This document shows positions 2,501 to 24,000 of a stretch of 24,000 nt of DNA, piece after piece. Every line of letters starts with the position of its first letter. The first letter of the stretch is position 1. Under the pieces are notes generated by a model, which saw only the letters and a program-made list of their open reading frames with translations, ran no database searches and was not told the origin of the DNA. Source of the DNA: Methylomagnum ishizawai (GTDB lineage: Bacteria; Pseudomonadota; Gammaproteobacteria; Methylococcales; Methylomonadaceae); NCBI GenBank assembly GCA_945861705.1, contig CAMAVM010000011.1:57799-81798 (forward strand), written 5' to 3'. A program made the translations under genes and the position numbers.

Positions 2501-4585
2501 ATGACAGATTTATCGCTTTACAGAAACATCGGTATATTCGCGCACGTTGATGCCGGCAAAACCACGACCACCGAGCGGATTTTAAAGCTGACCGGAAAGA
2601 TCCACAAAATTGGTGAGGTGCACGACGGTGCGACCACCACCGATTTCATGGACCAAGAACGTGAGCGCGGCATTACCATACAATCCGCAGCGACTACCTG
2701 TTTCTGGAAGGATTATCGGTTTAACATTATTGATACCCCAGGCCACGTTGACTTCACCATCGAAGTGTACCGTTCCTTGAAGGTTCTCGATGGCGGTATC
2801 GGCGTGTTCTGTGGTTCTGGTGGGGTTGAGCCGCAATCAGAAACCAATTGGCGTTATGCGAATGACTCTGAAGTTGCTCGCGTTATCTACATCAATAAGC
2901 TGGATCGTATTGGGGCTGATTTCTATCGCGTGATTAAGCAGGTTGAACAAGTATTGGGTGCAGTGCCTGTCGTTATGACCTTGCCTATTGGCACCGAAGA
3001 CCAGTTTGTCGGCGTTGTGGATGTACTTACCCGCAAAGCCTGGATATGGGACGATTCCGGTGACCCAATGAATTACCATATAGAAGATGTACCTGCCGAT
3101 ATGGTTGCGGACGTTGAAAAATGGCGCGAAAAAATGATCGACCAAGTTGCCGACCAATTTGATGATGTTATGGAACAATATCTGGATGGCGTAGAACCTG
3201 ATATTGAGACCATCAAGCGCTGTATACGTAAGGGTACGATCAACCTCGATTTCTTCCCGACCTTCTGCGGTTCTTCTTTCAAAAACAAAGGTGTACAGTT
3301 AGTGTTGGACGGCGTTATCGATTACCTGCCTTGCCCAACTGAAGTTAAACCTCAGCCTGAAGTTGATCTTGAAGGCAACCCTACTGGTGAGTTTGCAATA
3401 GTCGATGCCAATAAGCCATTACGCGCACTCGCATTCAAGATTATGGATGACCGCTATGGCGCGTTAACTTTCCTGCGCATCTATTGTGGCAAGCTGGAAA
3501 AAGGCACCAACGTACTCAACACCTTCACTGGCAAAACCGAACGTATTGGCCGTATTGTTGAAATGCACGCCGATGATCGTAATGAATTGGATTCCGCACA
3601 AGCTGGCGATATTGTTGCGGTTTTGGGTATGAAGAATATCCAAACCGGACACACGCTATGTGATCCGAGATTCCCTGCAACATTAGAACCGATGGTATTC
3701 CCTGATCCCGTTATCTCGCTGGCGATTAGCCCGAAAGATAAAGCGGCATCTGAAAAAATGGGTATCGCATTGGGCAAAATGATTCAGGAAGATCCCTCTT
3801 TCCACGTAGAAACTGATGAAGACAGCGGCGAAACCATTCTTAAAGGTATGGGCGAGTTGCATCTTGACATCAAAGTTGACATCTTAAGACGTACCCACGG
3901 TGTAGATGTTATCGTCGGTAAACCACAGGTGGCCTACCGCGAAACCATTACCAAACTCGTTGAAGATGAATACACCCACAAAAAGCAATCGGGTGGTTCT
4001 GGTCAATACGGTAAAATCAACTACATCATTGAGCCAGGTGAGCCGGGTAGTGGTTTTGTATTTGTGTCAGCGGTTACCGGTGGTAACGTACCACGCGAGT
4101 ACTGGCCTGCGGTTGAAAAAGGTTTTAAAAACATGTTGGACAAAGGCGTTTTAGCTGGTTTCCCTTGTTTAGATTTTAAAGTTACCTTAACTGACGGTGC
4201 ATTCCATGCGGTTGACTCGTCTGCGTTAGCGTTTGAAATTGCTGCCAAAGCCGCATTCCGTCAAACCATTCCAAAAGCTGGCCCACAATTGATCGAACCG
4301 ATCATGAAAGTGGACACCTTCACGCCGGATGCCCACGTCGGTGATGTCATCGGCGACCTTAACCGCCGTCGTGGCATGATTAAATCGCAAGATCCAGGTA
4401 TTACGGGTGTGCGCGTAAAATCTGATGTGCCATTGAGCGAAATGTTCGGTTACATCGGTGATTTGCGTACCATGACATCTGGTCGCGGTCAGTTCTCCAT
4501 GGAGTTCTCGCATTACATGCCGTGCCCTAAAAACGTGGCAGATGAAGTCATCAAGGAAGTTAACGAGCGCAATAAAAACAAGTAG
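2501..4585 (+). CDS. fusA: Elongation factor G, a stand-alone EF-G2-type paralog that is not in an rpsL-rpsG-fusA-tuf context.
   Basis: The GTPase motifs are present ([24 protein letters not shown]) and EF-G domains II-V are full length. An RBS-like gagt precedes the ATG. Confidence 0.95.
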
Positions 4586-4642
4586 TAATAAGCTGGGTTG
4601 ATTCCCAGATTTCAGCTTACAGGTAGAGTGGATTAAGACATA

Positions 4643-4740
4643 ACGCGGGACGGGGTTTAAACCCCGTCCCAAACGTTTGCTGGTTATTTTCTTGATCTAT
4701 GCTGAAACGCTTCGGACGGGGCAACATGTCCAGTCCGGCT
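4643..4740 (-). repeat. Twin-hairpin dispersed repeat, copy C. It includes the perfect hairpin gggacgggg-tttaa-accccgtccc at 4647-4670, which probably acts as a terminator between convergent fusA and suhB.
   Basis: The reverse complement aligns by eye with 17083-17190: agccggac.gg.catgttgccccgt.cg.ag.gtttca.c ... acgt...gacgggg...ccccgtc.cgcg. Confidence 0.6.
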
Positions 4741-15338: not shown

Positions 15339-15524
15339 GATGATAGCGTAGATGAAATCGAAAACATTACCGAAGATTGCTGATGTTAACGACTATAAAC
15401 AAACTGGGGCTAATGTACAATTTTAATCAAAAAAGGTACTGGTTTGTAAACTAAGGAAACCCTTCGACAAGCTCATGGAAAGCTGTAAAATATTGATTTT
15501 AAATATGTATTAGCATATTGCTCA

Positions 15525-15609
15525 GTTCGTAGGATTTCAACGTGGTACCAAAGCCCATCTGTCGGTAAAGCATGAGTGACGGGGTAACATACTCCGTAGC
15601 GCGGAAGAC
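15525..15609 (+). repeat. Twin-hairpin dispersed repeat, copy A. It is degenerate and lacks the first hairpin.
   Basis: gttcgtaggatttcaacgtggtaccaaagcccatctgtcggtaaagcatgagtgacggggtaacatactccgtagcgcggaagac aligns with 17107-17189. The flank actgtaga...agagtta is also shared with copy B. Confidence 0.55.
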
Positions 15610-15645
15610 CCACTGTAGACCGTCGGGTGGAACGAAGAGTTAGAC
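15584..15645 (-). repeat. Possible degenerate terminal attC of the cassette array.
   Basis: GTTAGAC (15639-15645) abuts the stop of ORF 15640-15951, as at the other cassettes. A weak partner, ggtaac, lies at 15584-15589. Stem pairing is poor. Confidence 0.25.
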
Positions 15646-15951
15646 CTCGGGTACACGATCATAGCCTGACACGCCTAGCCACTCAATACGGCAGAAACCA
15701 GCATCGCGAAGGTATGCCACAGCCTCACGAAAGATAGGAAGACTGAACTCCTTAGGTGTGATGCCCCGAAGTAGTGAGCCTTGCTCAATATGCAGGAAGT
15801 ACACAGCATCTGGCTCTGACACGTAAGTACGGGCGATTATGGAGATTGACGCATCTGAGAAGCTGTAGAGATCGTATTCGTATCGCCATTCGTAGAGACC
15901 ATTGGTGTCAGGTTCACAGGTATCGACATAGCGAGACTTCTCGACGTGCAT
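15640..15951 (-). CDS. Hypothetical protein (cassette 10, the most distal).
   Basis: The 103-aa ORF fits exactly between attC 15956-16030 and the GTTAGAC at 15639-15645. I recognise no motif. Confidence 0.55.
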   Translation of the reverse strand: MHVEKSRYVDTCEPDTNGLYEWRYEYDLYSFSDASISIIARTYVSEPDAVYFLHIEQGSLLRGITPKEFSLPIFREAVAYLRDAGFCRIEWLGVSGYDRVPEV

Positions 15952-15955
15952 GGGG

Positions 15956-16030
15956 GACTAACGATAAGCTAAACGATGCAGTGCGACTTTATCACGCAGC
16001 ATCCAGCGACTGAAAGGAGCGAGGTTGAGC
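15956..16030 (-). repeat. attC recombination site (75 bp).
   Basis: gactaac-gataagctaa...gagcgag-gttgagc matches the array consensus. It lies immediately after the stop of ORF 16038-16187. Confidence 0.6.
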
Positions 16031-16037
16031 GGGATGT

Positions 16038-16187
16038 TTACCATTGCCACTTGCCTTGCCCTTTGATGAGTACCTTCGAGCTGCGGTTTACTACCAAAGC
16101 ACCATCGGGTGTAACCCTGTACGCGACGTTGCCATTTTTGAATTCGTAGCCTTCGTGGCTACAAGGGGTAACTAAATCAGGACACAT
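16038..16187 (-). CDS. Small 49-aa protein, the second gene of a two-gene cassette. It is not in the ORF track.
   Basis: The protein reads MCPDLVTPCSHEGYEFKNGNVAYRVTPDGALVVNRSSKVLIKGQGKWQW. Its ATG (16185-16187) lies within the last codons of the upstream ORF (ATGTGTCCTGA). Its stop is 8 nt from the attC. Confidence 0.45.
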   Translation of the reverse strand: MCPDLVTPCSHEGYEFKNGNVAYRVTPDGALVVNRSSKVLIKGQGKWQW

Positions 16188-16533
16188 GTGCATGATTGCT
16201 TTGCCCGTGAGAGTGATTGACTGTCGGTTTTTCCGTAACGCCTAAAATATTTGAAATTTCACCATCCCCGTAAGCTTCCTTCTTTGACAGGATAAGCGAT
16301 AACTTTTCTTTAATTTCGCCGAGGTGACCGCTATGACTTTGAGTGCTTTTGTTTATGACCTTATTTTTGTGTGTCCGCCCATCCTTTTCAAGTCTCGCCT
16401 TAAGTACCGTGTTCTCCTGCTTAAGCGCAGCATTCTCCTTTTCGAGCAACGCTATTTGTTTTTCAGAATCAACAAGCCGTTCTTTATAGATGGCAGACAA
16501 TGGAATTTCTTTAAGCCAGTCAAGGATAGCCAT
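16177..16533 (-). CDS. Coiled-coil hypothetical protein, the first gene of a two-gene cassette. The start is trimmed to MAILDWL.
   Basis: The tracked N-terminus (16534-16623) lies inside attC 16551-16673. A heptad-like stretch reads KQIALLEKENAALKQENTVLKARLEK. Confidence 0.55.
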   Translation of the reverse strand: MAILDWLKEIPLSAIYKERLVDSEKQIALLEKENAALKQENTVLKARLEKDGRTHKNKVINKSTQSHSGHLGEIKEKLSLILSKKEAYGDGEISNILGVTEKPTVNHSHGQSNHAHVS

Positions 16534-16550
16534 ATATGCGTTTCCGAAAT

Positions 16551-16673
16551 GCCTAACGTAAAAGTAAGGGGCGCGCCGGATGACAAAGTTTAATAAAGCC
16601 GACGAACCCAAATAAATGACCAACCTTCAAAAGCGCCTTCGTCCGGCGCGTCCCTTTGACTGGCATGTTAGGC
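16551..16673 (-). repeat. attC recombination site (123 bp).
   Basis: gcctaac-gtaaaagtaaggggcgcgccggatgac...gtccggcgcgtccctttgactggcat-gttaggc has long imperfect inverted arms. It starts 18 nt after the stop of ORF 16691-17122. Confidence 0.8.
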
Positions 16674-16690
16674 CACATAAATACTTTCCC

Positions 16691-17122
16691 TTATAGGAGT
16701 TTTAGTATGACAGATTTGTAAAGCCATATTACAGCGCTTATTAATACCAAAATTAAAGGTAGCAGTAAAATTGCATAAACCCACTTAATTTTAGTTTTTT
16801 TAGACACCCCGTTAAGAATGAACCCAATGATGAAAATGGTGATTCCAGCAGGAATTGTTAATGGTAGGCCAGAAAAGCCAAAAATTAACAATAAACCAAG
16901 TACCAATACAGTCGGTTTCTCGACCTGGACGGGAAGGTAAGTGCAACTATGGGATTGAAGGTTACAATCAAATAATATGCCAAACAGCATTCCCAGAATA
17001 AAAATGATAATTGGAAAAAGTCCAATACTTAAACTAAAGAAAAGAAGCCGGGAAACCCAGTTTGTGCTCTGAGCAGCTAACCCAGCCGGACGGGGCATGT
17101 TGCCCCGTTCGTAGGGTTTCAA
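16691..17122 (-). CDS. Small integral membrane protein (cassette 8). The start is uncertain.
   Basis: Four hydrophobic helices are visible. The first ~13 codons (about 17083-17122) are encoded by repeat copy B, so the real start may be the internal ATG at 17099 or further downstream. Confidence 0.55.
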   Translation of the reverse strand: MKPYERGNMPRPAGLAAQSTNWVSRLLFFSLSIGLFPIIIFILGMLFGILFDCNLQSHSCTYLPVQVEKPTVLVLGLLLIFGFSGLPLTIPAGITIFIIGFILNGVSKKTKIKWVYAILLLPLILVLISAVIWLYKSVILKLL

Positions 17123-17190
17123 CGTGGTTCAAAAACGCCACCGTCGGCAAAACGTAAGTGACGGGGTACATACCCCGTCACGCGGAAGAG
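17083..17190 (+). repeat. Twin-hairpin dispersed repeat, copy B, the most complete copy.
   Basis: Hairpin 1 is cggacggggca-tgt-tgccccgttcg and hairpin 2 is gtgacggggt-acat-accccgtcac. They are separated by tagggtttcaacgtggttcaaaaacgccaccgtcggcaaaacgtaa. Confidence 0.6.
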
Positions 17191-17245
17191 TACCAACACC
17201 AAATATCCAGACTGTAGATTTATAGAGTTGATAACGAATCATGTT

Positions 17246-17371
17246 GCCTAACGCAGAGCTAAGGGGCGGTTTGCCCGATGATAACGACAACGGAGACGAC
17301 AAATGACTGATAAATCACAGGATTTAAAGAACGCACTGGGGCAAAACGTCCCTTTGAGCGACATGTTAGGT
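17246..17371 (-). repeat. attC recombination site (126 bp).
   Basis: gcctaac-gcagagctaaggggcggtttgccc...ggggcaaaacgtccctttgagcgacat-gttaggt. Its first 17 nt are identical to those of attC 19636-19725. Confidence 0.75.
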
Positions 17372-17629
17372 ATGAATAATGGGGATTTGAACACACCATT
17401 AAAAATTAACAACATAAAAAATTACCAAACCAGAATTAGATGTGCCCGCGAAGATTTGATGTTGGCAAAAGAAAGACACGGCGAAAACTCCGATGAATAT
17501 AAAAAGCAACTGGAACGTTCATTTTCATTTATAAGGGGAATATTTGTTGAAATTCTCTGTGTTTCTGAGACCTGTTTCAATAACCTTCTTTTTGATAACA
17601 AGAACCAAACCACTCAAATTGACCAATAG
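17372..17629 (+). CDS. Hypothetical protein on the strand opposite to the array. This is a doubtful call.
   Basis: The ORF is open from inside the attC. The first ATG outside the core is 17372. It lies in an AT-rich segment and overlaps the 3' end of the minus-strand ORF by 53 nt. Confidence 0.3.
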   Translation: MNNGDLNTPLKINNIKNYQTRIRCAREDLMLAKERHGENSDEYKKQLERSFSFIRGIFVEILCVSETCFNNLLFDNKNQTTQIDQ

Positions 17630-17897
17630 TTTTAAGAGCCGCATTAAACAACAACCTTTCCTCTGGGTCGCCAAGTTGAAGGTCAGTGCTGTACTCAAAC
17701 GAACAAAGGCAAGCATTTGAATCATAGAAAACATTTTTTACAAGATGATGCACATTCTCAACAGCAGCAGCCCTAGCAAACAAAATCATTTCGGCGAGTT
17801 CGTGCGCCCTACCATGCCTGGTGCATATCTCTATACCAAAGGCGGACATAGCATCAACGTTTACTTGCTGAACTTTTTCTTCAAAATAATCAATCAT
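17577..17897 (-). CDS. Hypothetical protein (cassette 7). The start is trimmed to MIDYFEEK.
   Basis: The tracked start at 17957 lies inside attC 17915-17983. The ATG at 17897 lies 17 nt beyond the attC edge. Confidence 0.5.
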   Translation of the reverse strand: MIDYFEEKVQQVNVDAMSAFGIEICTRHGRAHELAEMILFARAAAVENVHHLVKNVFYDSNACLCSFEYSTDLQLGDPEERLLFNAALKTIGQFEWFGSCYQKEGY

Positions 17898-17914
17898 GGG
17901 TTTGTTCCTGTAAT

Positions 17915-17983
17915 ACCTAACGTGGAGGTCACCGGCCTTGCGCGGCTTTTCGCGCAAGGTCCGTGTGGACCGCAGGGTTAGAA
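17915..17983 (-). repeat. attC recombination site (69 bp).
   Basis: acctaac-gtggaggtcaccggccttgcgcggcttttcgcgcaaggtccgtgtggaccgcagg-gttagaa. It is very similar to attC 21788-21856. Confidence 0.8.
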
Positions 17984-17987
17984 CGCA

Positions 17988-18722
17988 TTACTTCACCGCC
18001 GGTGGTTGACCACCACGTAGGACCTGAACGGCTGGATCATTTGCAAGCACTTGCACCTCGATTCTCCGCCCAGTATTTGTTCCGAGATATGGCTTCATAG
18101 CGGTAACCATGTATGGAACGACAAGCCGAAGATCACCGCTTGAACCAGTGCTCACAACACTGGTCTTCCATACCTGTGTCATTTTCTTTTCCTTTATATA
18201 GGTCGGCACGTCGTAAGCGTCCAGATATAGAAATCTGGAGTACACCGTATCTGCTCCGACATGCGTTGTTGACCCTGTGACGCCGTAAGTTGGCGTGTAT
18301 GTGGTGGTGCCGGAGTAAGTGGCCATGCCCCCATAGGAAGACACTGTCCCGTAGGTGTTTGACGAGGACACGCCCGTTTGTCCCCAAGTAGGAAGTGAAT
18401 ACGTGTATTGATAGGTTTGGGGATCGCCTATCGCGTAGGCTAGAAAAATCGCTACGTCTGCATCTTGCAACGCCGCGGCCTTGACGAATCCCTTCTCGGA
18501 CAAGACCTTTTCTACGTAAGCCGCGAATTCTTGAAACTGTAGATCGCCAGCCTCGACTCCCTTTCCGCCGGGCAATAGGACGTACCGCTTCTTAGCGACT
18601 GCGTCAGCTTGGGCAAGCGAATCAACGTTCGACAATAACCGGGTTGGCTGCATGCCGGCGCAACCCGACAGAAAGGCGACCCCCATAAGCAGCGATGCCA
18701 AAAAAATGTTTTTGAGACGCAT
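17988..18722 (-). CDS. Lipoprotein (cassette 6), possibly DUF4136-like, with an S/T/G/Y-rich central region.
   Basis: The signal and lipobox read MRLKNIFLASLLMGVAFLSG|C. A low-complexity stretch reads TYQYTYSLPTWGQTGVSSSNTYGTVSSYGGMATYSGTTTYTPTYGVTGSTT. Confidence 0.8.
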   Translation of the reverse strand: MRLKNIFLASLLMGVAFLSGCAGMQPTRLLSNVDSLAQADAVAKKRYVLLPGGKGVEAGDLQFQEFAAYVEKVLSEKGFVKAAALQDADVAIFLAYAIGDPQTYQYTYSLPTWGQTGVSSSNTYGTVSSYGGMATYSGTTTYTPTYGVTGSTTHVGADTVYSRFLYLDAYDVPTYIKEKKMTQVWKTSVVSTGSSGDLRLVVPYMVTAMKPYLGTNTGRRIEVQVLANDPAVQVLRGGQPPAVK

Positions 18723-18750
18723 GAAGCCTTCTTTGTGCGTGGTGTATGCG

Positions 18751-18813
18751 TTCTAACGTAGAATTAACCGGCTCCGCGCTTTTGCGGAGTCCGAGTTGAA
18801 TGTCGGGTTAGGC
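18751..18813 (-). repeat. attC recombination site (63 bp).
   Basis: ttctaac-gtagaattaaccggctccgcgcttttgcggagtccgagttgaatgtcgg-gttaggc. The stop of ORF 18808-19626 lies inside the GTTAGGC core. Confidence 0.75.
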
Positions 18814-19626
18814 CACGATGCATGGTGGAACCCATTGTTCTATGCTGCTGTGACCACGCGGAAGTAAAAGCTCGATACTTCTCTTTCCCCGCTGAATTTG
18901 GCTGATTATGGGATGCTCAGGGTTATTCCGGCTCTCTGTGTCTGGGCCGTAGAAATACCCACAGCCACCATCGCGCGTAGCGCGAAATCTGTTGTTGATG
19001 CTTTCAATGACCTGCGCTGAGTCGGAAAAAACAAAAGTTCCGTAATGGACGTTCGTGCTCCAAAGAACGCCAAGACCATTTACGTCGTTATCAAATATGG
19101 CGCGAACATTCGAGATGCAGCGTTGAATCCAGTACGGCCAGAGGACGCACTCAATACCAAAGTGGCTTTCAGCTTCTGCCTTGCGAATTGACGGATGCTC
19201 AGGGCTTGAGTTGTATTGCGATGGTGCGAAATGACTCGGGCCGTGAAATTCAACGAGTTTTGAAATACCATCAACCGAAACTTTCAGATCGACGCGCCTC
19301 CTGCCCCAAGGCACCTGATGCTCTACGGTGGCGTTTGGATACGCAAGCTCTATCAATTTCACGAGGATCATTTCATCAAGGCTTACGCTAGCATTTCCGA
19401 TTTTGGCAGGTGGGGAATTGGGTATAGCACTTGCGTACCAAAGTTTTTGAAGTTCACGTTCGTCAATGGCCTCGATGCCGTTCCAGTTTTTGAACGGGAC
19501 TGATTGAACGTCACTCTCGGTTACGCCGAGAATTTCGACAACATCGCTTTTGCTCAACATTGAGCCCACGCATGAGTCGCTGCTGTGGAGTTCAAACAAG
19601 CCTTGGGGGCGACCGAGGATTCCCAT
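18808..19626 (-). CDS. Hypothetical protein with a DUF559/Vsr-like (PD-(D/E)xK-type) endonuclease motif (cassette 5).
   Basis: GRRRVDLKVSVDGISKLVEFHGPSHF resembles the D...(V/I)E(F/V)(D/H)G..H core of DUF559/Vsr-fold nucleases. The ORF fills the cassette exactly. Confidence 0.6.
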   Translation of the reverse strand: MGILGRPQGLFELHSSDSCVGSMLSKSDVVEILGVTESDVQSVPFKNWNGIEAIDERELQKLWYASAIPNSPPAKIGNASVSLDEMILVKLIELAYPNATVEHQVPWGRRRVDLKVSVDGISKLVEFHGPSHFAPSQYNSSPEHPSIRKAEAESHFGIECVLWPYWIQRCISNVRAIFDNDVNGLGVLWSTNVHYGTFVFSDSAQVIESINNRFRATRDGGCGYFYGPDTESRNNPEHPIISQIQRGKRSIELLLPRGHSSIEQWVPPCIVA

Positions 19627-19635
19627 ATGTGATTG

Positions 19636-19725
19636 GCCTAACGCAGAGCTAACCGGGCGCGCCCCGCAGGAATGAAGATGGAAACAAAGATTGATGACGC
19701 GCTCCGGTTGAGCGGAGGGTTAGGC
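19636..19725 (-). repeat. attC recombination site (90 bp).
   Basis: gcctaac-gcagagctaaccgggcgcgcc...gcgctccggttgagcggagg-gttaggc. Confidence 0.8.
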
Positions 19726-19746
19726 ATCATTTTACAGGAGATTGGC

Positions 19747-20043
19747 ATGGGTATTTATTATGTAATTGCTTGCGATGAACTAAAAGAAAAAATTGAGCCT
19801 GGGAGCATTAACAATCTGGGTATTAAACAGCGCGCAATCGCTCACCCAGATCACCCGTTTGGTCCGGTATCTGTTTTTGCTCTCGTTACAAGATGGAGAG
19901 ACAAAGCTGCGCGGGTTTTGAACGACGGCGGCGATGATCCTGGATACTTCGAGTACACAGATGTTACACAACAGATTATTGATGAGTACAACTCGGAGTA
20001 TAGGACCGCGTTGAAGTTCACCGGCGACGATGATGACGCATAA
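19747..20043 (+). CDS. Hypothetical 98-aa protein with an acidic C-terminal tail, in the opposite orientation to the array (cassette 4).
   Basis: An AGGAG RBS at 19735-19739 lies 7 nt before the ATG at 19747. The tracked start at 19672 lies inside the attC. The tail reads KFTGDDDDA. The stop overlaps the gcataac core. Confidence 0.55.
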   Translation: MGIYYVIACDELKEKIEPGSINNLGIKQRAIAHPDHPFGPVSVFALVTRWRDKAARVLNDGGDDPGYFEYTDVTQQIIDEYNSEYRTALKFTGDDDDA

Positions 20044-20169
20044 CGTTCGAGCTAAGCTGGCGACAACGGCATGGCGCGCTGGACGGCAAGCGCAAAATGG
20101 GCCGCAGGCCCAGCGCTTGATGGCCAGCGTGACATGCCGTTGGCGCTCAGCTTGAGCGAGGGGTTAGGC
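20038..20169 (-). repeat. attC recombination site (132 bp).
   Basis: gcataac-gttcgagctaagctggcgacaacggcatg...catgccgttggcgctcagcttgagcgagggg-ttaggc has long inverted arms. The tracked ORF 20052-20273 (-) lies almost entirely within it. Confidence 0.75.
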
Positions 20170-20196
20170 CTCGCTGCGCAAGTGCTTGCAAAGCGC

Positions 20197-20225
20197 TTGA
20201 CAAGCACATAGCAAGCGCTTAGAGT
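20197..20225 (+). promoter_or_regulatory. Sigma70-type promoter for the SeqA-like gene.
   Basis: TTGACA (20197-20202) is followed by a 17-nt spacer and TAGAGT (20220-20225), 46 nt upstream of the ATG. It is embedded in four AAG(T/C)GCTT repeats, which are possible operator sites. Confidence 0.5.
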
Positions 20226-20271
20226 GCTTACTACGCGCTGCTTGAGCGTGGGCGATGAGCGAGGGACAACC

Positions 20272-20769
20272 ATGAAGACTATTGATGTTGAAGACGATGT
20301 GTACCACTACATAGCTGCGCAAACCAAGGAGATCGGCGAGCCTGCAACAAGCATTCTTCGGAGGCTGCTAGGCGTGCCTACCAGTGCCCAACCCGCCCAA
20401 CCTAAAGCAGCGATGGTAGCGGCGCAACTGCATGAGTTGGCATTGCTGCTTGCGCAGCCCATGTTCTCTAGTTCGACGACTGCAGTGGCCCGGATGCTCC
20501 GGATCTTCAGGGAGGTTCATGCGCAGAAGAAGCAGGATTTTGCAAAGGTGCTCCAGATCCAGGGTCGCAATAGAGCTTACTTTGCAAAGAGCGAACATGA
20601 AATTTTGAAGTCAGGAAAGAGCACCCAGCCTCGCGAGATTGAAGGTACTGGATTCTGGGTAATGACGAACTCGCCGACGCAGCAAAAGCAGCAGATGGTC
20701 CGCGAAGTGCTCGAAGTGCTTGGGTACAGCCCAGCTGCCACTAAGGCGGCAGTCGCGGTGATTCAATAA
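20272..20769 (+). CDS. seqA: SeqA-like protein (cassette 3), in the opposite orientation to the array.
   Basis: The N-terminus MKTIDVEDDVYHYIAAQTKEIGEPATSILRRLL parallels E. coli SeqA [33 protein letters not shown]. The C-domain GRNRAYFAKSEHEILKSGKSTQPREIEGTGFWVMTNSPTQQK parallels [42 protein letters not shown]. The RBS gaggga lies 5 nt before the ATG at 20272. Confidence 0.8.
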   Translation: MKTIDVEDDVYHYIAAQTKEIGEPATSILRRLLGVPTSAQPAQPKAAMVAAQLHELALLLAQPMFSSSTTAVARMLRIFREVHAQKKQDFAKVLQIQGRNRAYFAKSEHEILKSGKSTQPREIEGTGFWVMTNSPTQQKQQMVREVLEVLGYSPAATKAAVAVIQ

Positions 20770-20800
20770 TCGTGGTGCCGCCAAGGCCTTGTTCTGCGAG

Positions 20801-20911
20801 GCCTAACGTTTAAGCTAATCGGCATTTTGCGGCATGCGGTATTTGGGCGAGAATGAAACGATGCCGAAATACCGCATGCCGCAAAATGTCCGGCTGAGCG
20901 AATGGTTAGCC
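20801..20911 (-). repeat. attC recombination site (111 bp).
   Basis: gcctaac-gtttaagctaatcggcattttgcggcatgcggtat...ataccgcatgccgcaaaatgtccggctgagcgaatg-gttagcc. It abuts the stop of ORF 20913-21770. Confidence 0.8.
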
Positions 20912-20912
20912 A

Positions 20913-21770
20913 TCACTGCGGCAAAATTCCGTCAACAACTTCAACCCCGAGCAAATTGCTCAGGGCCTTCAATTTTGATGGCAGATTGGATTCAAGTACC
21001 AGAATCGCTCGGGCATCGCATGTTCTAGACTGCGACAGCAGTACCGCATCAAGAATGGCTTGATATTTGACGCATTGAAATATTCCTCGAACAATATCAG
21101 GCTCGGCAGACAGTCTTGACTTTACTTCGACGGCAAACCACTGCTTAGCTAGATTGAACGAAACATCTAGTGAATCGCCGGATGGAAGCCTGAACTCTGT
21201 TGTGCCGATTGTTGAAGACGCGGGAAGCCCAACTATTTTCGGGTTCTTGGCGACGTAGTCCTTGAGTCGTTTGTGTTCAGGACTTTCACCACCGCCGAGG
21301 TTGCCTGATGCTTTGACTAGTTCTACTGCGAAATTGACTTCAGCCGGCTCGAGTTCCAAGTCTTCGAGTACACAGGCCCAGTGAGGGTATGCATAAATAT
21401 GTTGCAGCTCAGCCTGCACTATTTCTCGTCTTCTTCGCAATGGAAGCTTGGAGAAATCCTCTTTTGAGATTAGAAACCAGCCAATCCCTTCTCCCGGAAT
21501 GCCTGTCGCTTTGTTGACGACCAAGCACTGGATAGGTGGAATCTTCTCCTTCCACTTCTTTGAGAGTTGCAACATGGCTTGACCAACGCTGCCGAGCACA
21601 TAGTTGAGATTTCTGGGATTTGGCATGCCCAACTCTTCTGCCAGATCAGAGTAGAAAATTGACTTACCGGCAGTAGCTTGTCTAACCAATAGAGGTAGCG
21701 CGGCGCGAGCGCGTTCTTGATACAGCTTATCGCCAGAAATTGAGGAGGCAGTTTTGGCCGTGGTGGGCAT
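20913..21770 (-). CDS. Hypothetical two-domain protein (cassette 2): an N-terminal wHTH-like region and a C-terminal PD-(D/E)xK nuclease-like domain.
   Basis: The C-terminal half reads GGGESPEHKRLKDYVAKNPKIVGL...LPSGDSLDVSF...WFAVEVKS...IFQCVKYQ, which fits a D...(D/E)xK arrangement. The N-terminus reads IPPIQCLVVNKATGIPGEGIGWF. Confidence 0.65.
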   Translation of the reverse strand: MPTTAKTASSISGDKLYQERARAALPLLVRQATAGKSIFYSDLAEELGMPNPRNLNYVLGSVGQAMLQLSKKWKEKIPPIQCLVVNKATGIPGEGIGWFLISKEDFSKLPLRRRREIVQAELQHIYAYPHWACVLEDLELEPAEVNFAVELVKASGNLGGGESPEHKRLKDYVAKNPKIVGLPASSTIGTTEFRLPSGDSLDVSFNLAKQWFAVEVKSRLSAEPDIVRGIFQCVKYQAILDAVLLSQSRTCDARAILVLESNLPSKLKALSNLLGVEVVDGILPQ

Positions 21771-21787
21771 CGGTGACTTTCTGTGAT

Positions 21788-21856
21788 GGCTAACGTGGAG
21801 CTCAGGGGCGCTGCGCGGCTTTATCGCGCAGCGTCCCTTGGAGCGCAGGGTTAGAA
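21788..21856 (-). repeat. attC recombination site (69 bp).
   Basis: ggctaac-gtggagctcaggggcgctgcgcggctttatcgcgcagcgtcccttggagcgcagg-gttagaa. It lies 1 nt from the stop of ORF 21858-22133. Confidence 0.8.
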
Positions 21857-21857
21857 C

Positions 21858-22133
21858 TTAACGCGACCATTCTTGGCATTTGCTTTGCTGCCCAAACATA
21901 TCTGAACTCCGACTATCTTGCCCAGTGAAACCAAGACCCTCGCACACGACTTTTATTCTTCGTCCCAAAGACGAATGAAGCTGGTGAAACGGCGTATCGG
22001 TATCAATCGCGGCCAAGGCATCAACGTAGCGACGTTGGTTTCTATGCGCTAGCTCCCTAATTACTAAGTGGGAATCAAACGGTGCGTTGAGTGATTCAAC
22101 TACTTCGGTTATTGCAACATCCCAATCTTCCAT
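21858..22133 (-). CDS. Hypothetical 91-aa protein (cassette 1, adjacent to attI).
   Basis: The ATG lies 22 nt downstream of the GTTAGAA junction, with aaagg 7 nt upstream. I recognise no motif. Confidence 0.6.
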   Translation of the reverse strand: MEDWDVAITEVVESLNAPFDSHLVIRELAHRNQRRYVDALAAIDTDTPFHQLHSSLGRRIKVVCEGLGFTGQDSRSSDMFGQQSKCQEWSR

Positions 22134-22153
22134 ATCGCTTACCTTTTCTGATG

Positions 22154-22175
22154 AGTTCTAACTACAATTAGACAT
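22154..22175 (-). other. attI-like core at the attI x first-cassette junction.
   Basis: The minus strand reads GTCTAAT-tgta-GTTAGAA, an L/R-box-like inverted pair ending in the GTTRRRY core. It is followed directly by cassette 1. It lies about 110 nt from the intI 5' remnant. Confidence 0.5.
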
Positions 22176-22260
22176 CCCAATAGACGCAAAACATTGCGTC
22201 ATCAGTTTGTCTAAACTTTTATAAAAATGTAAAATAACTTTAATTTCATTCATGTGTGAG

Positions 22261-22288
22261 AATTTAGCACACCCTAAGATAAATGCAA
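22261..22288 (-). promoter_or_regulatory. Candidate cassette promoter (Pc-like) reading into the array.
   Basis: The minus strand reads TTGCAT (22288-22283), a 16-nt spacer, then TGc-TAAATT (-10 at 22266-22261, with an extended-10 TG). The -35 overlaps the ATG of the intI remnant. Confidence 0.3.
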
Positions 22289-22357
22289 TACCTTTCAGAA
22301 AATTTACCCGTACAAGCACCCAAACTGCTCGATAAAGCTAGGGGGAAAATCCATTTA
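22283..22357 (+). pseudogene. Remnant copy of the first 25 codons of intI.
   Basis: It translates as [25 protein letters not shown], against [25 protein letters not shown] at 23068-23142. That is 20/25 identical by hand alignment. After that the sequences diverge. Confidence 0.6.
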
Positions 22358-22459
22358 ACCCGTGGCGTAAAAGGGGCGATAATTGCGTTGCGCCGTATGG
22401 GTTTGAATAAAAACGGTGTGCATTGTGTACTTTTAACGCTTCACTAAGGTAACTGTAAT

Positions 22460-22696
22460 ATGAAAACATCACTGTCTGAGCGTATCACAACCAATCCTGA
22501 AATTTGTCACGGTAAACCCTGTATCCGCGGCTTGCGCTATCCTGTTGAAACCGTTCTAGAATGGTTGGGTTCAGGCATGAGTGCGGAAGAAATTCTTGAC
22601 GATTACCAAGATATTGAACACGAGGATATTCTGGCTGCCCTTAGTTTTGCATCCCGCGTGGTCAAGATTAAACGTATCGAGATGTTAGCGGCATGA
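22460..22696 (+). CDS. DUF433-family antitoxin-like protein.
   Basis: ITTNPEICHGKPCIRGLRYPVETVLEWLGSGMSAEEILDDYQDIEHEDILAAL is the typical DUF433 core. The gene has a 4-nt ATGA overlap with the next gene. Confidence 0.85.
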   Translation: MKTSLSERITTNPEICHGKPCIRGLRYPVETVLEWLGSGMSAEEILDDYQDIEHEDILAALSFASRVVKIKRIEMLAA

Positions 22697-23046
22697 ATTT
22701 TCTTGTCGATGCACATTTGCCACGTCATTTGGCTTTGCTACTGAAAGAGCATGGCTACGATGCTATTCATACTTTGGATTTGGCGGAAGGTAATCGAACG
22801 ACAGATAGCCGAATCAATGAATTATCAGTGAGTGAACAGCGCGTTGTCATCACCAAGGATGCTGATTTCGTCAATTCGTTTTTGATATTGAAACAACCTT
22901 ATAAGCTGTTGCTGGTTTCTACTGGGAATATATCCAACAAGGAGCTTATGGGGATATTTGCGAAGAACTTGCCTCAGATTATTTCGGCACTGACTATTTA
23001 TGATTATCTGGAATTGACTCGCATTTCTTTGATCGAGCATGGATAA
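22693..23046 (+). CDS. DUF5615-family (PIN-like) toxin-like protein.
   Basis: MNFLVDAHLPRHLALLLKEHGYDAIH...VVITKDADF is typical of the DUF5615 partners of DUF433. It is translationally coupled to the upstream gene. Confidence 0.8.
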   Translation: MNFLVDAHLPRHLALLLKEHGYDAIHTLDLAEGNRTTDSRINELSVSEQRVVITKDADFVNSFLILKQPYKLLLVSTGNISNKELMGIFAKNLPQIISALTIYDYLELTRISLIEHG

Positions 23047-23067
23047 CTGATGCAGACACGTGACGCA

Positions 23068-24000
23068 ATGCAATACCCTTCAGAAAATTTACTTGTGCAA
23101 GCGCCCAAGTTGCTCGATCAAGTCAGGGGAAAAATCCGTTTGAAACATTACAGTATCCGTACCGAGCAGGCGTATACGGATTGGATTAAACGTTTTATCC
23201 TGCATTTTGGCAAGCGGCACCCGCGTGATATGGGCGCGGCGGAAGTGGAGCAGTTTTTGACGCATTTGGCGGTGAATGGCAATGTCGCCGCGTCTACGCA
23301 AAATCAGGCCAGGTGCGCTTTGTTGTTCCTTTATAAGGAAGTGTTGGCGATAGAATTGCCTTGGCTGGATAATGTGGCGCAAGCCAAAACGCCTAAGCGT
23401 TTACCTGTGGTGTTGAACCGTGATGAGATTCAGGCGATTTTGTCGCGCTTGAGCGGTACGCAATGGTTGATTGCCAGCTTGCTGTACGGGACGGGAATGC
23501 GGATTATGGAATGTTTGCGCTTGCGGGTGCAGGATATTGATTTTAAACGCCGTGAGATTTTGATCCGTGACGGCAAGGGGTTTAAGGACAGGGTGACGAT
23601 GTTGCCCGTATCTTTGTCGGCAGCATTGCAAGCGCATCTCGCCAAGGTGCGGACGTTGCACGAGGGCGATCTGGCGCAGGGTTTCGGCGCGGTGTACTTG
23701 CCGTATGCCCTTGAACGCAAATATCCCAATGCGGCAAAGGAGTGGATTTGGCAGTATGTGTTTCCTGCGGCTAAAGTTTCAACTGATCCGCGTACTCAGG
23801 CGGTGCGTCGTCATCATGTGCAAGAACAGGCGATACAACGGGCGGTTAAGCAAGCGGTGCGCGATGCGGACTTAACAAAAGCAGCCACGCCGCATACGTT
23901 TCGGCATTCGTTCGCCACCCATTTGCTGGAAGGCGGTTACGATATTCGCACGGTGCAGGAGTTGCTTGGTCATGCGGATGTCAGTACGACGATGATTTAC
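23068..24000 (+). CDS. intI: Integron integrase IntI, truncated at its 3' end by the window edge. An alternative in-frame start is the ATG at 23050.
   Basis: The frame is open to the last base of the window. It is collinear with IntI1: [41 protein letters not shown]. The IntI-specific insertion is present ([21 protein letters not shown]...RRHH), as are [12 protein letters not shown] and [13 protein letters not shown]. Confidence 0.95.

Follow-up and report, generated by a model that had tools for sequence, protein, structure and literature searches.

The window analysed here is a 24,000-nt stretch of a genome assembly assigned to Methylomagnum ishizawai (contig CAMAVM010000011.1), and its right-hand part holds an integron: a cassette array, the attachment site attI at which cassettes are joined, and the integrase gene intI (Table 1). 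Between attI and intI lies a toxin–antitoxin (TA) module. It is not a cassette; it is fixed in the integron platform, has the same orientation as intI and abuts it. The attI crossover and the ancestral intI ATG are 906 nt apart here. Reading away from attI and the old promoter region, the DNA in between consists of a remnant of the 5' end of intI, a 30-nt segment, the leader of the TA module, the antitoxin gene, the toxin gene and a 20-nt segment, after which the complete intI begins. The element as a whole is a small chromosomal integron of the sedentary kind, and its host is a bacterium of Methylococcaceae type.

Table 1. Features of the integron, its cassette array and the TA module, with the identity profile against the second TA-bearing lineage (L088)
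Feature	Position	Strand	Basis or remark
Cassette array, about 9 cassettes	15535-22161	-	attC covariance model and pattern match
Terminal attC-like site	15535-15646	-	pattern match only
attC sites 5-8	18751-18814, 17915-17984, 17246-17372, 16551-16674	-	covariance model
attC sites 1-4	21788-21857, 20801-20912, 20038-20170, 19636-19726	-	covariance model
attI region	22162-22235		homology breakpoints in contigs with other first cassettes
Promoter-like site TTGTCT-17-TAAAAT, candidate ancestral intI promoter	22207-22235	+	promoter scan
intI remnant, first 25 codons (left repeat copy)	22283-22357	+	colinear with intact intI of relatives
Junction segment, 30 nt	22358-22387	+	no match to intI or conserved TA module
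TA leader	22388-22459	+	aligned with 7 homologous TA loci; DNA homology boundaries
DUF433 (COG2442) antitoxin gene, 78 aa	22460-22696	+	Pfam DUF433 E 2e-26
DUF5615/COG4634-type PIN-like toxin gene, 117 aa	22693-23046	+	Pfam DUF5615 E 2e-21
Junction segment, 20 nt	23047-23066	+	holds new in-frame ATG 23050; would add MQTRDA to IntI
intI, integron integrase	23068-24000, runs off window	+	right repeat copy = codons 1-25; 329 aa from this ATG
Identity to L088, attI to TA	22184-23083		97-100%, lower at L088 toxin lesion 22684-22883
Identity to L088, intI 5' half	23084-23683		about 88%
Identity to L088, intI 3' half	23684-24283		97-100%
Identity to L088, chromosomal flank	beyond 24283		about 85%

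The two genes of the module overlap by 4 nt (ATGA), and the toxin also gave weaker Pfam matches to PIN_10 (E 6e-6) and Mut7-C (E 2e-6). Both the antitoxin–toxin gene order and the matching domains of the type II DUF433/PIN-like (COG2442-COG4634) class are present. COG2442/DUF433 antitoxins paired with PIN-like toxins have been predicted to form TA systems (PMC2701414, PMC5499597). In one relative, vapBC10 of Synechocystis (PIN-COG2442), the toxin stops growth and the promoter contains an inverted repeat to which the antitoxin binds (PMC3834315). By analogy with vapBC10, the only relative for which such activities have been shown, the putative roles of the two proteins here are growth arrest and its neutralisation. 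Searches of PDB sequences matched the antitoxin to 2ga1, a DUF433 protein of unknown function (E 4e-4), and matched the toxin to no solved structure. Against homologues, the ratio of nonsynonymous to synonymous substitution rates (dN/dS) was 0.12-0.17 for the antitoxin and 0.13-0.16 for the toxin.

The gene downstream of the module is a genuine integron integrase. The full-length copy on contig L081 scored 491 bits against TIGR02249 (cutoff 265) and covered model positions 1-314 of 315. In the window the toxin gene ends in TAA at 23044-23046; the in-frame ATG at 23050 follows 3 nt on, and the ancestral intI ATG at 23068 follows 21 nt on. Gene callers place the start at the former, which gives a protein of 335 aa. 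The resulting N-terminal extension MQTRDA occurs in one of the 120 closest IntI clusters (at least 83% identity), and this cluster is the TA-bearing one.

The initial annotation had proposed that the TA pair is bracketed by a diverged repeat of the intI 5' end, and our repeat search and alignment bore this out. Two direct copies of 75 nt, at 22282-22356 and 23067-23141, are spaced 785 nt apart and are 84% identical; in translation, 20 of 25 residues agree between left and right. The ATG of the left copy, at 22283, heads a 54-aa open reading frame (ORF; 22283-22447), whose stop lies 12 nt before the antitoxin ATG. The first 50 nt of this copy are equally close to intI of the relative L173, to the right copy of L088 and to its own right copy, while the last 25 nt are decayed and now encode LDKARGKIHL.

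Related loci indicate which state is the older one. An IntI scan of species-representative genomes gave 80 loci, of which the closest (L001, 90% amino acid identity) belongs to a Methylococcaceae metagenome-assembled genome; this locus begins exactly at the attI crossover and is colinear through the attI region into an uninterrupted intI. A protein search added L172 (ENA) and L173 (JGI), whose IntI is 93% identical. Both carry the same downstream gene as the window lineage, encoding a 1240-aa RP005_N/Pyr_redox_2 protein, and represent the same chromosomal locus; their divergent first-cassette ORF lies only 134 nt from the intI ATG. The path from attI to intI is likewise uninterrupted in L174 and L002. 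All five relatives retain the attI region, align with it and with the left repeat copy, and then continue in intI at the point at which, in the window, the TA segment takes over. Because the left copy and the upstream attI region are colinear with these uninterrupted attI-intI regions, the repeat is not due to chance, and 22283-22357 is a remnant of intI. Since attI is joined directly to intI in five relatives, two of which share the chromosomal locus, it is the insertion of the TA segment that is derived, in agreement with the original proposal.

The arrangement is confined to one narrow lineage. We found the same layout with the same neighbours in at least nine different contigs (ENA, Logan, JGI) and in a 94% identical variant, L088. 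Homologues of the TA pair were detected by tblastn near intI at none of the 80 genome loci, and ten co-directional upstream ORFs in relatives held no TA domains. The closest relatives by IntI are Methylococcaceae, Methyloglobulus, Crenothrix and Methylobacter.

A metagenome scan with the toxin recovered 80 homologous loci, nearly all with the same antitoxin–toxin pair, and an integrase stood beside none of the 80. DNA similarity to the closest homologues (80-83%) spans exactly 22388-23046, that is, the 72-nt leader and both genes up to the toxin stop. The neighbours of these homologues are other antitoxin-like genes. There is nothing out of the ordinary about the module, a free-standing and mobile TA unit. 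Its leader carries a conserved promoter-like site, read by eye rather than by the scan, with hexamers TTGAAT-17-TGTACT in the window and TTGCAT-17-TGTATT in the homologues. In the homologues, an inverted repeat CACAATA...TATTGTG brackets this site around the -35 hexamer; the window keeps its right arm only. At one locus (L102, about 3535-3660), a close TA homologue stands directly downstream of three CRISPR-like direct repeats with the core CACTGCCGCACAGGCAGCTTAGAAA, which we take to be a type I-F CRISPR repeat.

We next considered whether the integron still works. intI is under strong purifying selection, with a dN/dS of 0.07 between the two TA-bearing lineages and of 0.08-0.13 against the empty-site relatives. 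The homology of L083, L084, L088 and L090 to the window ends precisely at the attI crossover, so that, with the window included, the joint ...TGTAG|TTAG is seen with five different first cassettes. These breakpoints place the crossover at 22160-22162, consistent with the position first assigned to attI. The platforms of four of the five first cassettes show 99.9-100% identity through the TA pair. As the repeat copies have diverged by 16% and the platforms are essentially identical, the cassette changes most simply date to after the insertion. Identical platforms with different first cassettes, together with purifying selection on intI, indicate indirectly that the integron stayed functional and appears to be still active after the insertion.

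The second TA-bearing lineage, represented by L088 (JGI), has the same remnant-TA-intI layout, and its identity to the window is a mosaic (Table 1). The chromosomal flanks of the two lineages differ, on their sequence identity, at roughly species level. Patches of the platform that are nearly identical beside such a flank argue that the platform has been exchanged between lineages by recombination. The toxin gene of L088 has an 11-nt deletion (L088 1161-1171 region, window 22863-22873) that removes a D-A-D-F motif and shifts the frame; outside the deletion it differs from that of the window by eight nonsynonymous and six synonymous substitutions. The antitoxin gene differs by seven substitutions, all synonymous (hypergeometric probability about 0.015, calculated by hand). 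This pattern resembles orphan-antitoxin retention; it fits a retained regulatory role and also fits a very recent loss of the toxin. The 3-nt spacing between toxin stop and ATG is kept in both lineages, and the lone substitution at this junction is synonymous in the extended intI frame.

The annotation had also held that the ancestral intI promoter region stayed next to attI, and here, too, the data agree. The candidate promoter TTGTCT-17-TAAAAT at 22207-22235 is largely conserved in four empty-site relatives: the first hexamer is invariant, and the second differs only at its first base, in L173. The promoter scan found a further site at the junction of remnant and insert (22355-22383) and no plus-strand promoter-like site between 22383 and 23344. 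Terminator-like sites numbered zero in 21700-23400 (2.0 expected). Folding revealed no RNA structure at either junction beyond shuffled controls, and there is no clear Shine-Dalgarno sequence at the old or the new intI start. The position of the ATG at 23050, 3 nt past the toxin stop, is compatible with termination-reinitiation. A search for LexA boxes (CTGT-N8-ACAG, up to one mismatch) was blank in 22100-23400; there is therefore no sign that this integron was ever under SOS control, which the earlier description had assumed as its baseline.

An integrase that evidently still works must be expressed somehow. As intI begins 3 or 21 nt after the toxin stop, with no terminator or promoter predicted in between, it is most likely the third gene of the TA transcript, and on balance we favour co-transcription with the TA operon. 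Translational coupling of intI to that operon is plausible. A TA-intI transcript could start at the TA promoter, or come from the old intI promoter, 785 nt further upstream, through read-through, or both sources could contribute, and translation of IntI may re-initiate at the ATG at 23050. Integrase supply would then follow the control of the TA operon, namely antitoxin binding and proteolysis of the antitoxin under stress.

The further step, that the integrase has been rewired into the TA operon so that the DUF433 antitoxin gates cassette capture and shuffling at the level of transcription, in the place of LexA, is a tentative one and we think it rather unlikely. An antitoxin acting as gatekeeper would explain why the antitoxin is perfectly conserved where the toxin is destroyed. 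The initial annotation had called the TA operon autoregulated. Given vapBC10 this is a fair analogy, but it is an analogy only, and the vapBC10 antitoxin activates its own operon, an unusual case of positive autoregulation, and is degraded by ClpXP (PMC3834315). The accompanying suggestion that the module makes the integrase end of the array addictive is weakened by the frameshifted toxin of L088.

The strongest competitor to co-transcription is that the TA module is a passenger: it landed in the intI 5' end, the duplication rescued the intI reading frame, intI is transcribed independently from a promoter, newly created or already present, within the 3' end of the toxin gene or the 20-nt junction, and TA regulation is irrelevant to the integrase. 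Such independence would sit well with the loss of the toxin in L088 without any sign of integrase decay, with a narrow distribution that suggests a near-neutral accident, and with the insensitivity of a consensus scan to weak promoters. It has to contend with the empty stretch between 22383 and 23344 and the lack of a terminator after the toxin gene, and with a stop-ATG spacing that is kept in both lineages and whose only neighbouring substitution is silent in the intI frame. We regard it as a possible but doubtful alternative.

As to the insertion itself, in one sub-lineage a free-standing DUF433/DUF5615 module of ~710 bp, with its own promoter leader, was captured at intI codon 25/26, probably by illegitimate recombination. 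The first 75 nt of intI were duplicated in the event, which restored an intact integrase ORF behind the toxin gene and left a dead 25-codon stub with attI and the old promoter region. The geometry fits both a staggered break and replication template switching to a TA locus and back. Selection would keep only those events that rebuilt the whole of intI; the target duplication begins within 1 nt of the intI start codon. The 30-nt segment at 22358-22387 is probably a diverged flank of the TA donor locus.

Alternatively, the locus might be the relic of two tandem intI copies that once flanked the TA module, with a deletion leaving 25 codons of the copy next to attI. The left copy matches intI of L173 at 65 of 75 positions and its own right copy at 62 of 75 (both counted by hand); with the left copy about as close to the one as to the other, strict duplication in situ is not required. 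Frequent recombination at this locus is also apparent from the mosaic identity profile. Yet the five relatives, including the two at the same locus, have a single intI directly beside attI, and a duplication, an insertion and a precise deletion make for more steps than one capture. We judge a two-copy ancestor improbable.

Still less probable is a degenerate, inverted cassette that the integrase itself placed at a secondary site within intI. Integrase-mediated insertion is not known to make a 75-nt target duplication. This, together with the missing attC, makes such a route unlikely. A covariance model built from seven local attC sites, run with filters off, found no attC on either strand of 21860-24000 at E <= 10. 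The lack of a match near the TA pair supports the earlier claim that the pair is not a cassette, with the reservation that a model trained on the local attC family could miss a foreign attC. The TA homologues found away from any integrase point the same way, as do the flanks of about 10 of the closest TA loci, in which we saw no obvious attC-like sequence by eye. In favour of a cassette, the minus strand reads GTTAAAT at the remnant junction (22358-22352), which by eye fits a GTTRRRY core, and chromosomal integrons commonly contain TA cassettes that have promoters of their own and are often inverted (PMC13108822). We also tried an attC-like reading of 22352-22407 by eye (ATTTAAC...GTTTGAA) and dropped it, because the covariance model gave no match there. 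Lastly, a chimera or collapsed repeat can be dismissed: the window matches metagenome contigs and repeats of this kind can mislead assemblers, but the identical structure was assembled independently in at least nine contigs from ENA, Logan and JGI, and the 94% identical variant shares the layout while carrying substitutions of its own and a private 11-nt deletion.

Several observations weigh against the account that we prefer, capture of the module followed by co-transcription of intI. The promoter scan, built on a rough sigma-70 consensus, might overlook a promoter in the toxin 3' end that is weak or not of the sigma-70 type. With the left arm of the inverted repeat missing from the leader, the usual autoregulation may be disabled. 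The second lineage has a frameshifted toxin, which is therefore dispensable. Movement of the platform by recombination complicates both the dating and the argument that cassettes changed after the insertion, and another integrase in the genome, acting in trans, could be behind the cassette turnover. The account must further explain how a 75-nt duplication came to begin right at the start codon, and the origin of the 30-nt and 20-nt junction segments. Neither segment matched any of the fetched loci outside this same arrangement, with up to 7 mismatches allowed for the 30-nt one. With these points taken into account, we hold the structural and evolutionary part with high confidence; the explanation as a whole, co-transcription of intI included, we consider moderately well supported.

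The covariance model recovered eight attC sites in 16551-21857, all on the minus strand (E 2e-18 to 2e-3), four of which were outside its training set; in the consensus fold, compensatory changes occur at 8 of the 20 pairs. Each cassette starts with the complement of the inverse core of its own attC; cassette 1 starts with TTAGAAC and its attC starts with GTTCTAAC. At attI the crossover is G|TT, at 22162/22161 (minus strand ...TGTAG|TTAGAAC). Inside attI, a 7-bp inverted repeat, GACGCAA-N4-TTGCGTC (22183-22200), is perfect in the window and is also found in L001, L172, L173 (one substitution), L174 and L002 (variant spacer); it is a candidate binding site for the integrase or a regulator. For the cassette promoter (Pc), no minus-strand consensus promoter was found in 22160-22360, where weak candidates were seen by eye only. 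To the left of about 15535 lie chromosomal genes for an MFS transporter, BrkB, an ABC transporter and elongation factor G (EF-G).

Some features of the array deserve mention in their own right. The cassette between the attC sites at 20038-20170 and 20801-20912 carries a plus-strand gene (20224-20769) for a full homologue of the replication-sequestration protein SeqA (SeqA_N E 3e-16; C-terminal domain E 2e-29), an unusual cassette cargo. The gene opposes the array orientation and so presumably has its own promoter. A sequence of ~100 nt occurs three times with 73-80% identity, at 15513-15608, 17095-17189 and, inverted, 4644-4740; the array holds two of these copies, internally or at its end, and the third lies elsewhere, close to where the EF-G gene ends. 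The attC model gave a weak match at 4638-4690 (E about 1). The first-cassette ORFs of the window (21858-22133, minus strand, 91 aa) and of L084 (137-415, minus strand, 92 aa) appear homologous by eye and have no Pfam match; if they are, the same small family would have been recruited twice at attI.

Integron activity is thought to be governed by a short promoter region that attI and intI share, typically through the SOS response. The locus described here is a natural rearrangement in which a putatively stress-responsive TA operon separates the integrase from the attI-intI promoter region and the integron appears to have been left active. If the coupling is true, it would provide a second route by which cassette shuffling is tied to stress. 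Lacking an attC, the TA module cannot be excised by the integrase, and its place is the one end of the array that the integron cannot afford to lose. A comparative test is at hand, since the same chromosomal locus occurs in close relatives both with the insertion and without it. The reach of the finding is limited to one narrow lineage; its parts are known and their arrangement is new. We found no description of a gene or TA pair between intI and attI in the searchable literature, which is itself incomplete and so is weak evidence.

Four kinds of known system invite comparison. Phages and islands that integrate in tRNA or protein-coding genes carry a replacement copy of the end of the target gene. 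The insert here is similar in having diverged direct repeats, derived from the end of a gene, on either side and in leaving the target gene intact; it differs in its size (~710 bp), in having no recombinase gene and in that no att-type core was identified. TA cassettes are known from sedentary chromosomal integrons, for example parDE, higBA, relBE, phd-doc and ccdAB in the Vibrio superintegron (PMC13108822; references cited in PMC8876359). Like them, the module is a type II TA system with its own promoter, opposed to the direction of the array, that could penalise loss of the surrounding DNA. Unlike them, it has no attC, lies outside the array in the platform, is co-oriented with and abuts intI, and is not movable by the integrase.

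As for the module itself, other PIN-COG2442 (DUF433) families of VapBC or related type include VapBC45 of M. tuberculosis and COG4634/PIN_10 (PMC5499597, PMC2701414). The present pair shares with PIN-COG2442 VapBC systems an overlapping two-gene operon in which the gene for a DUF433 antitoxin precedes that for a Mut7-C-like PIN toxin. It departs from vapBC10-type systems in that its toxin belongs to the DUF5615/COG4634 type, only one arm of the inverted repeat of its closest homologues is left in the leader, and a third gene, intI, follows. Finally, in integrons of class 1 and of Vibrio, LexA and the SOS response control the intI promoter (for reviews, see PMC8876359 and PMC3948777). If our reading of intI expression holds, the integron described here would resemble these in tying integrase supply to a stress-responsive regulator acting just upstream of intI; it would differ in that there is no LexA box in the region and the proposed regulator is a TA antitoxin whose target promoter would lie 600-800 nt upstream.

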